43,781 nucleotides of DNA from a virus (IMGVR_UViG_2547132077_000004:1-43781), one strand, 5' to 3'. Shown: positions 38,067-43,737, counted from the first letter of the stretch. Notes: a model not told the origin generated them from the letters alone. Translations and numbers: made by a program.

Positions 38067-38482
38067 GGCCTGCCAGCTTCTCAAGATATCCAGACCTACA
38101 GCAATCATGTCAATCCAATAAATGGAGACTCCAAGTGGAAGAAGAAATCTTCACTCGTGAAGAGGCTGCGTCGTATCTGAAGGTAGACAAAGGCACTATC
38201 ACGCAGTGGATACGAAGTGGACGACTTCAAGCCGCAAAGATAAATCCAGATAAACCTAAAAGCCCATATCGCATTTGCAAGTCAGACTGCATTGCGGCGC
38301 TTAAGTCTGTGAGACACAATAGCGCGGTGAATGCGGTTGATGTGCAGGAGGTTAAAGCATGTCAATCAAACTGCGCGGTGGCACATGGCACTGCGATTTC
38401 GTCGCGCCAGATGGATCAAGAGTTAGACGCTCTCTTGAAACATCGGACAAGAGGCAAGCGCAAGAACTTCACGATCGTCTGA
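38063..38482 (+). CDS. xis: Excisionase/AlpA-like HTH protein (start uncertain; overlaps int)
   Basis: HTH segment FTREEAASYLKVDKGTITQWIRSGRL immediately upstream of int; the ORF overlaps int by 124 nt in another frame, so the true start, or an alternative start codon, is unresolved. Confidence 0.5.
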   Translation: MRPASFSRYPDLQQSCQSNKWRLQVEEEIFTREEAASYLKVDKGTITQWIRSGRLQAAKINPDKPKSPYRICKSDCIAALKSVRHNSAVNAVDVQEVKACQSNCAVAHGTAISSRQMDQELDALLKHRTRGKRKNFTIV

Positions 38483-39519
38483 AAGCAGAAGCGTGGAGAG
38501 TAAAAAATCTCGGTGAATCACCGAAAAAGCTATTCAAGGAAGCCTGCATACGGTGGCTGCGAGAGAAAGCGGATAAGAAGTCCATTGATGATGACAAGAG
38601 CATTATATCGTTCTGGATGTTGCACTTCAGAGAAACCATTCTCTCTGACATAACAACAGAAAAAATAATGGAGGCGGTAGACGGGATGGAAAACCGCCGC
38701 CATCGCCTGAACTGGGAGATGAGCCGGGATAGGTGTTTGCGGCTTGGCAAGCCAGTGCCGGAGTATAAACCAAAGCTGGCAAGCAAAGGAACGAAGACGC
38801 GGCATCTGGCAATACTTCGCGCTATTCTCAATATGGCTGTTGAATGGGGATGGCTTGACAGGGCGCCCAAAATATCAACACCACGCGTTAAGAATGGACG
38901 AATCAGATGGCTTACAGAGGAGGAATCGAAGCGCCTGTTTGCAGAAATTGCTCCTCATTTCTTCCCTGTGGTCATGTTTGCAATCACGACAGGCCTTCGT
39001 CGTTCCAACGTTACAGACCTTGAGTGGTCACAGGTCGATCTGGATAAGAAAATGGCATGGATGCACCCTGATGAAACAAAAGCTGGCAATGCGATCGGAG
39101 TTCCTCTTAACGAAACCGCATGCCAGATATTAAGAAAACAGCAGGGGCTCCATAAGAGATGGGTATTTGTCCACACCAAACCTGCCTACCGAAGCGACGG
39201 AACAAAAACAGCAGCGGTAAGGAAGATGAGAACCGACAGCAACAAGGCATGGAAGGGAGCGTTAAAGCGGGCAGGCATTAGCAACTTCCGCTTCCATGAC
39301 CTGAGGCATACCTGGGCAAGCTGGCTGGTTCAGTCCGGTGTCTCTCTTCTTGCACTTAAAGAGATGGGAGGATGGGAAACTCTCGAAATGGTTCAAAGAT
39401 ACGCCCACCTTTCAGCCGGGCATCTCACCGAGCACGCGAGCAAAATCGATGCGATTATAAGTCGCAATGGCACAAATACGGCACAAGAGGAGAACGTAGT
39501 TTACTTAAATGCGAGGTAA
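38359..39519 (+). CDS. int: Tyrosine integrase
   Basis: 386 aa; C-terminal catalytic signature (HDLRHTWASWLVQSGVSLLALKEMGGWETLEMVQRYAHL) with R..HxxR..Y; ends 15 bp from the att core. Confidence 0.9.
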   Translation: MSIKLRGGTWHCDFVAPDGSRVRRSLETSDKRQAQELHDRLKAEAWRVKNLGESPKKLFKEACIRWLREKADKKSIDDDKSIISFWMLHFRETILSDITTEKIMEAVDGMENRRHRLNWEMSRDRCLRLGKPVPEYKPKLASKGTKTRHLAILRAILNMAVEWGWLDRAPKISTPRVKNGRIRWLTEEESKRLFAEIAPHFFPVVMFAITTGLRRSNVTDLEWSQVDLDKKMAWMHPDETKAGNAIGVPLNETACQILRKQQGLHKRWVFVHTKPAYRSDGTKTAAVRKMRTDSNKAWKGALKRAGISNFRFHDLRHTWASWLVQSGVSLLALKEMGGWETLEMVQRYAHLSAGHLTEHASKIDAIISRNGTNTAQEENVVYLNAR

Positions 39520-39533
39520 CTTATTGATTTAGA

Positions 39534-39579
39534 TGGTGCCGATAATAGGAGTCGAACCTACGACCTTCGCATTACGAAT
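39534..39579 (-). other. Attachment-site core: 3'-terminal about 46 nt of a tRNA-Thr(CGU) gene (thrW-like), isolated, no 5' half adjacent
   Basis: Minus strand reads TTCGTAATGCGAAGGTCGTAGGTTCGACTCCTATTATCGGCACCA: anticodon loop with CGT, T-arm GTAGG-TTCGACT-CCTAT, acceptor 3' strand and CCA. The sequence to the right does not continue as D-arm or 5' acceptor stem. The thrW match is from memory. Confidence 0.7.
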
Positions 39580-40065
39580 TATAAGAATCCGCTTCTAATT
39601 CAAAGCATTACCCCATCAACACTGCGCTCACACGTCCCACCACATCAAAACATGTAAAGCCTTGCAAGTCATTGCGAGGCCTTATGTGTCTCAGTTTTGT
39701 CCCACCTTGTATTACGACTTGCATAGCCAATGAAGATAAATGTGACAACAAACGGCGCAGCAGTCTTCTTTTCCTTCATACTTTCCCCACCCAGCATGCA
39801 TACCTTCTACCATAACTGTAGTGAATGTGTTATGAGCGAGATGCGGACATTGGCAGCCTCAACAACATGACTGGCATTGAGGCGTATTAATCAGTGGGGA
39901 GCAGGTCACGCCATCTATAATGGAAAACGTGCTGGTGACCTGCCGATACTCAGTCTCAGGCAGCGAATACAATTACACATAGTTCGAAAAATATGTTAGC
40001 GCAACCAGTGATATCCGCGGCTTTCTCTGGAAAAATGTGTTAGTTTCTCTAAGCCATGTCCATTG

Positions 40066-41001
40066 CTAAAATAGGTATTCTTTTATTCTGTAAAAATCGG
40101 ATATTTTCTCAAGCGCTGATGTAGGAATGGTTTTTTTGTTTATACTCAAACCTGTTTGTGTATTTTTTAGTTCTGCGATAATGTATTCATCATCAATATA
40201 ATCCTCTCTCTCTCCAATGAAGTTTATTATGAATTCTTTTGCTTTTAAAGCTTTTGTGATGTGATATTTTTCATTGAATAGAATATACACTTTGAAAATA
40301 GAATTGATGTGCTCATTAAAAATCGGCATTATTGGGAAAGATTCATCCATCTGTGTCAGGTCAGTCTTTACCTGACTCCCCCACTTAGAAAATCCACGAA
40401 TCAATTCATCTCTCATGAAATATACGATTAACTCTACAATTAAAGTACTACTGGTTTCATCAAGTGATTTTGATATCGTGTACGAAAGTGGTGGCATTCC
40501 ACAATGCTGAACAAAATTTCTGAGCTTATACATGAATCTATATGAAAACTTGCTATCAAATTCATTTCCCGTCAGCGTTTTAAACTCGACAAATTCCGTT
40601 GAATTAGCCCCATACCTCCTGTTAATACTGGTTTCCATATGGTCAAGTAAAGTTTTCACTGACATCATATAGTTCAGTATTCTTGTATTTAAAAAGAATT
40701 TGAAGGTTTTGAAGGGATATGAACCAATAAAAGAAGGTTCTTCGGCTACTTTTTTAACCGTTTCATCCAGAAGTTCCATTAGTGACTCATAGTTCAATCT
40801 TACATATTCTACTAAGGCAAAATCATTCACAAACTCCATAAGTATATTTTTTTGTGTATCATACACTTCAATTTCCTCATTACTAAGGGGTCTTATTTCA
40901 TTTATCTCGTTTACTTCACTTCCATCTGAAATTGATTCTTTAGCAAGGATTATAGTGGATTCGCTCAAGCTTATCTCCCTGATTAATTTTCTGTTAATCA
41001 A
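40066..41001 (-). CDS. Hypothetical protein, strongly AT-rich, unknown family
   Basis: 311-aa ORF, Asn/Lys/Ile/Glu/Phe-rich, divergent from the DUF262/DUF1524 gene across a 585-bp intergenic region. Confidence 0.45.
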   Translation of the reverse strand: MINRKLIREISLSESTIILAKESISDGSEVNEINEIRPLSNEEIEVYDTQKNILMEFVNDFALVEYVRLNYESLMELLDETVKKVAEEPSFIGSYPFKTFKFFLNTRILNYMMSVKTLLDHMETSINRRYGANSTEFVEFKTLTGNEFDSKFSYRFMYKLRNFVQHCGMPPLSYTISKSLDETSSTLIVELIVYFMRDELIRGFSKWGSQVKTDLTQMDESFPIMPIFNEHINSIFKVYILFNEKYHITKALKAKEFIINFIGEREDYIDDEYIIAELKNTQTGLSINKKTIPTSALEKISDFYRIKEYLF

Positions 41002-41586
41002 TATGGAACCCTAAAAGAGCACACTTGATCTGTATTATATCGGCTTAAGTTGCCAAGAATAGCCCCATCTTGATCAATATAATAAGTTTTTTATTCCCCT
41101 CTGACCCTGCATACCACCAATGTCTGTTCCTGGCACTTAGCAGCCCTAGAGACAGTGGCGTAAAGTCATGGAGGAGCGGTGGGAGGAGGTGCAAATCCTC
41201 TCATACAAAAAATACGTAAAATCGATAACGGCTTGACATAATTCAATACTAGCACTATCGGAAGTTCACCAGCCAGCCGCAGCTGACTATTGTATACGAC
41301 ATGTCTGCAGCTTCAATACCCGATAGTGCCATCTACAATGATTTAGCAGCGCTTGGATAAAAAAACAGCAGCAACAATGTGCTAACAATCTCGAAAAAAC
41401 ACCGACGCAATGGAGAACAGACAAAAGAGAATATCCAATGAAACCGTAGCACGTCAGCATTCAAAAGCGGGATTTCTCGTTTTTACTTCACCAGCAACAA
41501 ATACACTGTATCATGACTACATAAAAATGATTATTCTGACTCAGATGAATTTCTTACTCTTGTGGAATGTCACTTATAGGTAAACA

Positions 41587-43476
41587 ATGAAATCCGAAAC
41601 GCTAACCATCCAGCAACTTTTCCAAAATCAACGACAATATCGTGTTCCATTCTATCAACGTGCCTACGTATGGACGCAACAAAACCAATGGTCAGCTTTG
41701 CTGGAGGATATCTTCGAAAAAGCACATAGCCGACTTTTGGGAACAAAACCAACTCCCCATTTCCTTGGCGCGGTGGTGCTGGAACCTCAACTCAAAAACA
41801 GCTTGTTAGGTGTAGATACCATACATATTATTGACGGCCAGCAACGTTTAACCACTCTTCAATATATTCTGGCATCCATTCGATTATCATTGCGTGCTAC
41901 AGGCCTTTCTGATTTGGAAGGGTTAGTATTGACTTGCTTGAAAAATACAAACGAAGCAACTATGCGAAATAAAAAGGTAGAATGCTTCAAACTGTGGCCA
42001 ACTTTTCGAGACCAAACTCATTTTATTCAAAGTTTTAATGTTGAAAACATTGACGATCTCCGTGATGTATTTTCTGATAGCTTCACGCAACATGGTACGT
42101 TACGTAAACATTTCAACCACCCGCCGTCACTAGAGGCATTATGGTTTTTTACTGAAGCCTTTATAAAATGGATTAAAATAGAAAAGTACTCACCACATGA
42201 AAATGCTGTAGCACTAATTGAGGCTGTCTTGACGGATCTGAAACTGGTAAGCATATTTCTCGAAGCTGAAGATGATGCCCAAATAATTTTTGAAACATTA
42301 AATGGCCGAGGGGCGGAACTTCATGCCACGGATCTTATTCGCAACTACATCTTTATGTGCGCTGAGCATGAAAATATTAATGCTATTGAATTATATGAAA
42401 ATGAATGGAAGAGCTTTGAAGATACATACTGGTCGGAAAGGCAACGCCGTGGACGTATTAATAAACCACGCATGGAGTGGCTAGTGCATGCGACATTGCA
42501 ATCAGAAAGGCAACGTGAAATTGATCTGTCTCGTCTTTACAATGAGTATCGTGATTATGTAAGTAAGGACTTGCCTTCACAACGAGCTGATCTGCAAGTA
42601 AAGCGCCTCAAACAATATGCATCACAATATAAAGAATTAGTTGGTGGTTTTGGCACAACCCCCATCTCACACTTTGGACATCGCATCGCAGCCTATGATG
42701 TGACGACACTTTATCCGCTTGCTTTGTTCATTTCGATAGCTAATATCGCCGATGATGAGAAAGCAGCCATGTATAATGATCTTGTCTCCTACGTAGTACG
42801 AAGAGCCGTATGTGGCCTGACGCCAAAGAATTACAACAATGTATTTATGAATGTATTGCGGCACTTGTCTAAAACGGAAATTTCCAGTGTTGAGTTACGT
42901 AATATCCTCAATAGCTTAAATGGCGAAGCCTCACGTTGGCCTGGTGACTCAGAATTTCTCAATGCTTGCATCAATGCTCCACTTTATCCTGGCAGGCTCG
43001 ACGCACCGAAAATGCGCTCAATGTTAACGGAACTTGAAAGAGAACTTTGTCGCCAAGTGAAGACAGAGAAGCCTGATGTTCCAAATCTTTCCAATCTCGA
43101 TATCGATCATCTTATGCCTCAAAGTTGGTATTCCTGTTGGCCTCTCGAAAATGGTCATATGGTGACAAATTCAGATGCAACGGTATTGAACCAAATTGTT
43201 CTGTCTGGAACAGATCTTACCCCTGAGCAGCTACTGGTAAGGAAACGGCAACAAGCGATAGCTACGTTGGGAAATCTAACTTTGCTTAACCTTAGCGTAA
43301 ACCGTTCTGTTCAGAATGCTGTATTTCTGAAAAAACGTGATGCTCTCATCGTCCACACCAATCTACGACTGAACATACCACTTATACTTAAGGATAAATG
43401 GGATGAGGGTGAAATCCTGAAGCGGGGTAAAAAGTTGGGGGAAATTGCATTGAAAGTATGGCCAAAACACGATTAA
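41587..43476 (+). CDS. DUF262 (ParB-like NTPase) + DUF1524 (His-Me finger nuclease) protein, GmrSD-family type IV restriction enzyme-like
   Basis: 629 aa; N-terminal YRVPFYQRAYVWT and IIDGQQRLTTLQ (DUF262 DGQQR motif); C-terminal LDIDHLMPQSW ... LGNLTLLNLSVNRSVQN (DUF1524-like). Confidence 0.75.
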   Translation: MKSETLTIQQLFQNQRQYRVPFYQRAYVWTQQNQWSALLEDIFEKAHSRLLGTKPTPHFLGAVVLEPQLKNSLLGVDTIHIIDGQQRLTTLQYILASIRLSLRATGLSDLEGLVLTCLKNTNEATMRNKKVECFKLWPTFRDQTHFIQSFNVENIDDLRDVFSDSFTQHGTLRKHFNHPPSLEALWFFTEAFIKWIKIEKYSPHENAVALIEAVLTDLKLVSIFLEAEDDAQIIFETLNGRGAELHATDLIRNYIFMCAEHENINAIELYENEWKSFEDTYWSERQRRGRINKPRMEWLVHATLQSERQREIDLSRLYNEYRDYVSKDLPSQRADLQVKRLKQYASQYKELVGGFGTTPISHFGHRIAAYDVTTLYPLALFISIANIADDEKAAMYNDLVSYVVRRAVCGLTPKNYNNVFMNVLRHLSKTEISSVELRNILNSLNGEASRWPGDSEFLNACINAPLYPGRLDAPKMRSMLTELERELCRQVKTEKPDVPNLSNLDIDHLMPQSWYSCWPLENGHMVTNSDATVLNQIVLSGTDLTPEQLLVRKRQQAIATLGNLTLLNLSVNRSVQNAVFLKKRDALIVHTNLRLNIPLILKDKWDEGEILKRGKKLGEIALKVWPKHD

Positions 43477-43509: not shown

Positions 43510-43737
43510 TTAGTAAGGCCACAACTCACTATTAAATCCTTTAATTTGCATCAAGAACAGCAGTGTCAGCCCTAGGCTCTCGGACTTTGTACCGCTTATC
43601 TTGTCTTCAAAAATCAGCTCGCATCCTGCACAGTTCAACGCATTACGTTGTAGATCGATTTTCTGGTCATTTGTTGATACGAAAACATAGCCAATAAGCA
43701 TGGTAGCTCCCTCTGACAAAAGCAGGAATGATGCCAT
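43510..43737 (-). pseudogene. Truncated serine recombinase (resolvase/invertase family), N-terminal fragment
   Basis: MLIGYVFVSTNDQKIDLQRNALNCAGCELIFEDKISG matches the small serine recombinase catalytic N-terminus (nucleophile Ser in VSTNDQ), but the frame ends after 75 aa. Confidence 0.55.

Follow-up and report, generated by a model that had tools for sequence, protein, structure and literature searches.

GmrSD and an independent single-gene cassette encoding a candidate HEPN-like RNase at the cargo end of a thrW prophage

The position of gmrSD directly downstream of the tail-fiber genes of an SfII-like prophage was published in 2015 (He et al., 2015; PMC4437046), and a different prophage, Gifsy-1 of Salmonella, encodes HepS, a solo HEPN abortive-infection protein that is helical and has a canonical Rx4H motif (PMC13043305). 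HEPN active sites follow the pattern Rx4-6H, the residue next to the arginine usually being N, D or H, and the HEPN fold is a four-helix up-down bundle that often carries an insert between helices 2 and 3 (Anantharaman et al., 2013; PMC3710099). Here we describe positions 39,580 to 43,476 of a stretch of viral DNA of 43,781 nucleotides (IMGVR_UViG_2547132077_000004:1-43781; the window, below), in which gmrSD stands divergently from an uncharacterized gene for a protein of 300 amino acids (aa). The explanation that we consider likely for the region as a whole is that it is cargo of a second prophage (prophage B), comprising a known GmrSD, an independent mobile cassette and, encoded by that cassette, a putative HEPN-like RNase. 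The features on which this explanation turns are as follows.

40066 to 41001, minus strand: the smaller open reading frame (ORF) as first called, 311 aa from a TTG codon.
40066 to 40968, minus strand: the same gene as re-read from its homologues, encoding a 300-aa protein of an uncharacterized family, a candidate stand-alone HEPN-like RNase with the motif R150-N151-x-x-Q154-H155.
39831 to 41136, minus strand: mobile single-gene cassette of ~1.3 kb, made up of the 300-aa gene, ~168 bp upstream and ~235 bp downstream, and delimited by breakpoints and cross-genus identity.
41137 to 41586, plus strand: upstream (promoter) region that travels with gmrSD and is conserved alongside it where the cassette differs.
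41587 to 43476, plus strand: gmrSD, 629 aa, from the ORF call and Pfam matches to GmrSD_N and GmrSD_C.

A first-pass annotation, made from the sequence alone, had called divergent ORFs of 629 and 311 aa separated by 585 bp, and had seen in them a possible new two-gene defense module. Both ORFs and their divergence stand, but the spacing of 585 bp belongs to the 311-aa start. All homologues of the smaller protein begin with the residues MSES and are 300-301 aa long, and an internal TTG of the ORF is preceded by the ribosome-binding site AGGGAG; because of these lengths and starts and this site, the true gene is read as 40066..40968 on the minus strand, with 300 codons and a gap of 618 bp to gmrSD. 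Each ORF has many conserved homologues, so neither is a chance ORF, and the AT-rich composition noted at the outset is borne out, with 32.3% GC in the 300-aa gene and 41.4% in gmrSD against 49.5% in the prophage on the left.

Inheritance of the two genes was compared across 5426 complete Escherichia coli genomes, 306 of which carry gmrSD and 17 the 300-aa gene, the latter being missing from 289 of the 306 gmrSD-positive genomes. Among the 17 carriers the gene is intact in five, split by an IS5-family insertion sequence (IS) in two, and truncated in ten by one shared 538-bp deletion that takes its start and first ~175 codons and leaves gmrSD intact; the 12 inactivations fit a costly gene, but represent two events only, one deletion and one IS insertion. 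The first-pass annotation had named loss or pseudogenization of the smaller ORF in related genomes as a reason to give up its proposal, and this absence and disruption do undo the pairing, although the ORF itself is a real and conserved gene. The place of the 300-aa gene is taken by other genes elsewhere: a GmrSD protein identical to that of the window (WP_021540779.1) adjoins retron Ec67 in another genome, and the same slot in further E. coli genomes holds a type ISP restriction-modification (R-M) enzyme, a GIY-YIG gene, a 4-fold-beta-flower gene together with flxA and part of ydfV, ParA accompanied by two hypothetical genes, a dinI remnant only, or no annotated gene.

Pairwise alignment with these E. 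coli variants places the swapped segment at ~39854-41129, with breakpoints at ~39853 and ~41118-41130. The ~450 bp directly upstream of gmrSD stay with gmrSD, at 99.6% identity in locus L012 and 90.2% in L013, the cassette differing in both. Homologous loci of Pantoea, Klebsiella, Yersinia and Morganella share with the window exactly positions 39831-41136, at 81-91% nucleotide identity, and nothing beyond. The intergenic region is thus shown by these alignments to be a composite of two separately inherited parts, 168 bp moving with the cassette and ~450 bp with gmrSD. The 7-8 kb flanking the 300-aa homologue on each side contain no DUF262 gene in the four genera, in eight more distant contexts or, counted by family, in any of the 13 homologue families covered in other taxa, and no conserved partner or antitoxin gene lies inside or beside the cassette in the four genera or near distant members; as a test for a type II toxin-antitoxin pair, the comparison yielded a shared 1.3-kb unit of one gene only, with flanks that differ in every genus. 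On the strength of the counts of 306 and 17, the swapping of slot contents, the breakpoints and the lack of a DUF262 gene near homologues elsewhere, genome comparison shows gmrSD and the 300-aa gene to be two independent single-gene modules and not a pair. The slot between gmrSD and the attachment site (att) is a genuine swap site in e14/SfII-like prophages, and as such a place where unrecognized defense genes can be found by position.

Searches of the intergenic region returned no Rfam family above threshold, no non-coding RNA and no meaningful repeats, and promoter-like and terminator-like sites occur there at chance level only. A 68-bp segment upstream of gmrSD (41213-41280) is 87% identical to the ecpE/ykgJ intergenic stretch at L001 13011-13078 in the same chromosome region; the segment looks like a short dispersed repeat.

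The larger gene is readily assigned. Its product matches GmrSD_N (PF03235, 6.4e-34, residues 8-256) and GmrSD_C (PF07510, 1.4e-18) in Pfam and, over its full length, the PADLOC model mREase_IV (1478.8 bits), in agreement with the DUF262-DUF1524 architecture and the type IV, modification-dependent class first proposed for it. It is identical at 609 of 629 positions (96.8%, without gaps) both to Eco94GmrSD and to the single-chain, resequenced CT596 GmrSD (sequences from He et al., 2015, supplementary Figure S1; PMC4437046), and at 587 of 629 (93%) to the UTI89 enzyme "UT" (UTI89_C2960). The DGQQR NTPase motif is intact at residue 83 and D507, H508 and N522, at each of which an alanine substitution abolished cleavage by Eco94GmrSD (PMC4437046), are all present, so that the catalytic motifs that had been singled out for checking are in place. 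These domains, the PADLOC match, the degree of identity and the catalytic residues at their published positions identify the protein as GmrSD itself; the earlier label "GmrSD-like" had the family right and understated the relationship. Matches to the PADLOC SspE models are weak and confined to ~100 N-terminal residues.

The 20 substitutions relative to Eco94GmrSD include K280T (codon 280 at 42424-42426), the window protein having T280 and R285 in place of the two lysines that Eco94GmrSD, CT596 and UTI89 share at 280 and 285. K280 is part of the ExEx4ExK motif, and the double mutant E278A/K280A is nearly inactive (PMC4437046). Both the K280 and the T280 allele are common among full-length natural copies, however, and K280T was rejected as an inactivating change for this reason. 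The T280/R285 difference may instead alter specificity or sensitivity to inhibitors. For GmrSD the locus adds an allele and a further instance of the fixed position at the end of e14/SfII-like prophages, but otherwise nothing new, and the orphan 300-aa family, with its catalytic-looking invariant motif and no name in domain or defense libraries, is the only lead.

Both genes were found to belong to a prophage other than the one that fills most of the window. Window positions 1-39519 are a lambdoid prophage (prophage A) with its integrase at the end, and the part from 20000 to 38100 matches prophages of lambdoid type that carry bet and the gene for replication protein P. The features at and beyond its boundary are the following.

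38359 to 39519, plus strand: tyrosine integrase of the left-hand lambdoid prophage A (Pfam Phage_integrase, 9e-35), listed for context only.
39534 to 39579, minus strand: att core, read from the sequence as a 46-nucleotide (nt) partial copy of the 3' end of thrW (tRNA-Thr), which separates the tandem prophages.
39580 to 39853, no strand assigned: att-proximal arm of prophage B, conserved whichever cassette follows (94.5-99.5% in L001, L012, L013 and L014).
43510 to 43737, minus strand: truncated Pin-type DNA invertase (pin'), N-terminal 75 aa (Pfam Resolvase, 3.1e-06).

The att-proximal arm matches phage 21 and lambda-recombinant records at ~89%. In every related E. coli locus att is followed on its right by the short arm, which is conserved, then by a segment that varies, and then by gmrSD and the truncated pin, which in the window marks the start of the tail-fiber module of prophage B, continuing past the window edge; in most of the related loci examined, pin' is annotated as an incomplete recombinase and is followed by genes for tail fibers and baseplate that bear e14-type names (ymfQ, stfP, tfaE). 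Strain LH13-b supplies the whole element. There, both genes adjoin one copy of the thrW core (L001 20069-20114), a complete myovirus-type prophage with its own integrase follows, with genes for tail, head, terminase, lysis, Q, replication and repressor, and a second thrW core in the same orientation lies within ~30 nt of where its integrase gene ends (L023). Since in LH13-b the genes sit between two direct copies of the core ~40 kb apart, this comparison shows both to lie inside the att boundaries of prophage B, at the end opposite its integrase. The "island outside att" of the first-pass annotation is therefore outside the left lambdoid prophage, as stated, but inside a second one, and positions 39580-43476 make up the cargo end of a myovirus prophage of the e14/SfII-like type in tandem with a lambdoid prophage at thrW.

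The block of gmrSD and pin' is not tied to thrW, and recurs in prophages at ssrA (UTI89), icd and tRNA-Pro as well, usually with tail-fiber genes next to it. In strain 181.1, gmrSD lies exactly between the icd fragment and pin', the slot where the e14 element of E. coli K-12 carries mcrA (gene order stfE-pinE-mcrA-icdC).

The 300-aa protein belongs to a large family that is nameless in the libraries searched. A profile search of 1.84 billion representatives returned 3790 clusters at E<=1e-3, falling to 1839 at E<=1e-10, and almost all of them are 280-310 aa long, the total of about 3800 being a count of clusters at 50% identity. Close homologues, sharing 79-93% of their aa with it, are present in Pantoea, Klebsiella, Yersinia, Leclercia, Enterobacter, Morganella and Tatumella; among the best 120 matches, which come from Proteobacteria, Bacillota, Bacteroidota and one archaeal metagenome-assembled genome, every source name given is "hypothetical protein". 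The protein has no match in Pfam, PADLOC or NCBIfam, in keeping with the earlier statement that it lacks a recognizable domain, its sole library match is phrog_30874, a PHROGs family of unknown function, and the literature held nothing under its accession numbers.

The Pantoea copy lies in a small chromosomal islet, that of Klebsiella in a lambdoid prophage accessory slot after the replication genes, that of Yersinia in an island bounded by an integrase and carrying HD, TIR and Mrr genes, and that of Morganella at the integrase end of a prophage at icd; across the loci examined, the contexts are prophage accessory slots and defense islands with TIR, Mrr, HD, MmeI-type R-M and AAA_15/AAA_21 ATPase genes. 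In Morganella morganii (L009-L011, 9696-10667) an unannotated 323-aa gene follows the 301-aa homologue between the prophage integrase and icd, and is a second uncharacterized candidate in the same kind of slot. Genes for 285-aa DUF5677 (PF18928) proteins stand two genes upstream of, or directly downstream of, distant family members in a Priestia prophage (L029 5242-6099) and a Dethiobacter island (L031 7903-8760). Aligned with these two proteins by hhalign, the family scored a probability of <1%, the sole local alignment falling on the ...HC.M segment in the motif region.

Conservation was measured over 111 diverse members, whose identity to the window protein is 20-38%. No column is invariant except R150 and H155, while N151 is conserved in 98% and Q154 in 95%, giving the motif L-R-N-x-x-Q-H-C-G-x-P, and N59, N99, D109, H110 and D138 are each conserved in more than 90%. 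A confident AlphaFold2 model built with 26 homologues (mean predicted local distance difference test score, pLDDT, 91.3; predicted template modeling score, pTM, 0.85) has long helices at 30-76, 89-119, 124-139 and 141-156; beta-hairpins lie at the N terminus and internally, and the C-terminal part is alpha/beta. In this model, the motif occupies the end of helix 141-156, which stops just past H155 and gives way to a G157-M-P-P loop. For the conserved acidic residue that HEPN domains have in helix 2 near the motif, the candidate is D109 (94%) in helix 89-119, where by helix register N99 may be nearer to the motif. Compared with the published HEPN description, the family has the Rx4H spacing and a polar residue after the arginine, and the predicted model places the motif at the end of core helix 3 and the start of a loop, so that sequence and model fit the HEPN active site. 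Whether the protein is in fact a HEPN-like RNase stands, on the motif and the predicted model, at roughly even odds. Its occurrence in prophage slots and defense-gene islands, in a slot shared with a retron and an R-M enzyme and with no partner gene, suggests by analogy with HepS a stand-alone defense or abortive-infection role, and the notion of an Abi-like effector put forward in the first-pass annotation remains plausible for it as a candidate.

On this explanation, gmrSD and its ~450-bp upstream region are a fixed feature of the prophage family beside pin' and the tail-fiber genes, and GmrSD, through an N-terminal DUF262 NTPase/sensor and a C-terminal DUF1524 His-Me-finger nuclease, would cut incoming T-even-type DNA carrying glucosyl-hydroxymethylcytosine and so protect the lysogen. 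The variable slot between gmrSD and att holds, in the window, a 1.3-kb cassette that moves alone among enterobacterial prophages and islands. The helical bundle of its 300-aa product is predicted to carry an R-N-x-x-Q-H active site, and the enzyme may be latent until a phage component activates it, whereupon it would cleave tRNA or mRNA and abort the infection in the manner of HepS, likewise a solo protein of a prophage. RNase activity, defense role and trigger are what we infer for the 300-aa protein from this analogy.

A number of results weigh against this explanation. Pfam scans with 26 members at E up to 10 and with 111 members at 0.01 recovered no HEPN family, and PADLOC found no consistent family among the 111, one of which matches CARF_HEPN at E 0.0033. 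Sequence and profile searches of the PDB with the family gave no match, Foldseek against the PDB and BFVD gave nothing at E <0.001, and tblastn of 50,697 deposited phage genomes turned up no 300-aa homologue. The conserved D109, H110 and D138 could equally mark a metal-dependent site. On the GmrSD side, purified UTI89 GmrSD is inactive in vitro, though the strain nonetheless restricts some T-even phages (PMC4437046), and for this reason the restriction activity of the window allele is assumed. Alignment of the family by hhalign with a neighboring HEPN_RiboL-PSP-like protein gave a probability of 0.1%.

That the two genes nevertheless form one defense system, in which the 300-aa protein modulates, guards or backs up GmrSD, we regard as very improbable. 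The genes are adjacent and divergent and both are plausibly defensive, and T-even phages inject inhibitors of GmrSD (IPI*), which makes a guard biologically sensible. The HEPN-type anticodon nuclease PrrC is such a guard: it watches over the EcoprrI restriction system and is set off once EcoprrI is blocked by an inhibitor from a phage. Set against these points are a neighbor found in 17 of 306 gmrSD-positive genomes and intact in five, an identical GmrSD that has retron Ec67 in its place, a cassette whose copies in four other genera have no DUF262 gene in the 8 kb to their left or right, and an intergenic region inherited in two parts, with gmrSD intact where its neighbor is deleted. The co-occurrence counts and the swapping of slot contents give the new two-gene module no support, and the lack of co-inheritance and the homologues elsewhere give none to the suggestion that the smaller protein modulates the nuclease; a PrrC-like guard of GmrSD was likewise rejected on the co-occurrence data.

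The main alternative for the activity of the 300-aa protein is a different helical-bundle enzyme, for instance a nuclease or phosphohydrolase whose metal site is built from D109, H110, D138 and H155 and whose substrate might be DNA or nucleotides instead of RNA, with a stand-alone defense or toxin role still possible. We judge it unlikely, for although these acidic and histidine positions are well conserved, strict invariance is limited to R150 and H155, at exact HEPN spacing and with a polar residue after the arginine, and there is no Pfam match to the HD, DinB or hemerythrin families. Also of low probability is a non-defense origin of the gene, either as a prophage "moron" with a part in counter-defense, regulation or host fitness or as selfish, mildly toxic cargo. 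Its inactivation in 12 of 17 E. coli carriers, the failure of every defense library to recognize the protein and the presence of some distant members among ordinary hypothetical genes would all be expected of such a gene, but conservation is strong across genera (81-93% aa) and phyla with catalytic-looking residues held invariant, the gene recurs beside known defense genes and in prophage accessory slots, and the E. coli slot otherwise harbors retron Ec67 or the type ISP R-M enzyme. The reading that we prefer, a solo HEPN-like RNase, leads to a broader and more tentative proposal, which we put forward as possible while leaning somewhat against it: that the family, spread over Proteobacteria, Bacillota, Bacteroidota and at least one archaeal metagenome-assembled genome, is a large, unnamed group of solo anti-phage HEPN-like RNases with an invariant R-N-x-x-Q-H site, each riding in a cassette of one gene at hotspots of prophages and islands, and missed by defense-annotation tools. 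If true, a widespread single-gene system would be added to the defense catalogues, and the family would provide a second model, after HepS, of how an RNase toxin with no partner is silenced until infection.

A repeat marks the ends of the cassette. Inverted 20-mers, GAGCGAGATGCGGACATTGG at 39834 (plus strand) and GTGCCAGGAACAGACATTGG at 41117 (minus strand), bracket it as half-sites that span 39834-39853 and 41117-41136 and follow the consensus G[AT]GC[CG]AR..RCGGACRTTGG. This pair of 20-mers also encloses the two alternative cassettes of the slot that carry retron Ec67 and flxA, as well as the Pantoea and Klebsiella copies.

Further half-sites, by comparison locus: L012 6324/8560, L013 6371/7970, L002 7834/9115, L003 7834/9103, L006 7844/15725 and L115 4938-6530.

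Scans of viral and genome collections identified the 20-mers as halves of a double-hairpin intergenic repeat of 73-76 nt, one full copy of which folds with z = -5.3; the window copies are degenerate and non-folding. In Erwinia, Pantoea, Serratia, Rahnella and relatives, the repeat separates ordinary genes (GNAT, TauE, AraC, LysR, GGDEF, metallo-beta-lactamase-fold). An integron-like or otherwise dedicated recombination system for cassettes was rejected, as the repeat flanks such ordinary genes too, and it is best read as a repetitive extragenic palindrome (REP)-like element that marks the module boundaries by chance and may help recombination there. On two IMG/VR contigs, the half-sites bracket a gene for a 928-aa NB-ARC/TPR (STAND/Avs-like) protein (L036 8705-11961) and one for a 221-aa T5orf172/MUG113 nuclease-like protein beside a 1209-aa superfamily 1 (SF1) helicase (L043 1395-2826), contents that make some of the repeat-bounded units defense-like.

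The att core itself begins 14 nt past the stop codon of the integrase of prophage A. We take it to be the 3' end of thrW up to the CCA, on comparison with the thrW sequence; ARAGORN detects no complete tRNA at 39534-39579, and the assignment fits another strain, in which an annotated tRNA-Thr stands beside proA and the integrase of a prophage. The 46-mer occurs once in the window, in none of 100 shuffled sequences, and in identical form in L001, L012 and L013, all of which upholds the att core at a tRNA site that had been proposed. The last 55 nt of the integrase and the 14-nt spacer (39465-39533) also lie beside the thrW core in strains that lack an integrase at that place (L001 20001-20068; L013 and L014 6001-6068), directly adjoining the yagP pseudogene; either att identity extends ~68 nt past the tRNA into the 3' end of the integrase gene, or these copies are the remnant of an older element. 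Other elements crowd the same site. E. coli TBE6 has a Zorya (zorD) island with YagK/YfjJ genes beyond the att core (L012 1-5800), and in LH13-b a CP4-like element with cbtA/cbeA and Ag43 follows the integrase of prophage B (L023 16451-25001), tandem arrays that make thrW a multi-occupancy integration hotspot.

Among the systems described so far, the window enzyme is closest to Eco94GmrSD, EcoCT596GmrSD and UTI89_C2960, with which it shares a length of 629 aa, the DUF262 and DUF1524 domains, DGQQR, D507/H508/N522 and a position directly beyond the tail-fiber genes of an SfII-like prophage (PMC4437046). It differs from this group in that the integration site is thrW, and from Eco94GmrSD in the 20 substitutions. 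The mcrA gene of e14 offers a parallel in arrangement, being likewise a type IV restriction gene between the pin/tail-fiber module and att of an e14-type prophage. McrA, however, is an HNH protein unrelated to GmrSD that recognizes methylated or hydroxymethylated cytosine, and the window has a truncated pin and, on the att side of the nuclease gene, an additional slot of variable content. BrxU and SspE, attached to BREX and to Ssp phosphorothioation, respectively, have the same two-domain DUF262/DUF1524 architecture, whereas the window protein is orthologous, and nearly identical, to the stand-alone GmrSD and has no BREX, Dnd or Ssp genes nearby, its neighbors in every locus examined being the cassette gene, pin' and tail-fiber genes.

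The slot invites comparison with the defense hotspots of prophages and satellites, in which, as Rousset et al. reportedly described in 2022, unrelated defense systems swap at fixed positions. Here too the 300-aa cassette, retron Ec67 and the type ISP R-M enzyme replace one another, though the setting is an e14/SfII-like prophage beside gmrSD and not P2 or P4, and the slot is sometimes empty or occupied by the non-defense genes flxA and ydfV'. For the 300-aa protein the nearest model is HepS, from which it differs in size and motif position, HepS and its standalone homologues being <250 aa with the motif at R100-H105 (PMC13043305), and in extra beta-hairpin and C-terminal alpha/beta parts that are predicted for the 300-aa family. 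In genomic terms the two agree, for each is a single, partner-less gene in a prophage accessory slot, and the Klebsiella copy of the 300-aa gene occupies the matching slot of a lambdoid prophage.

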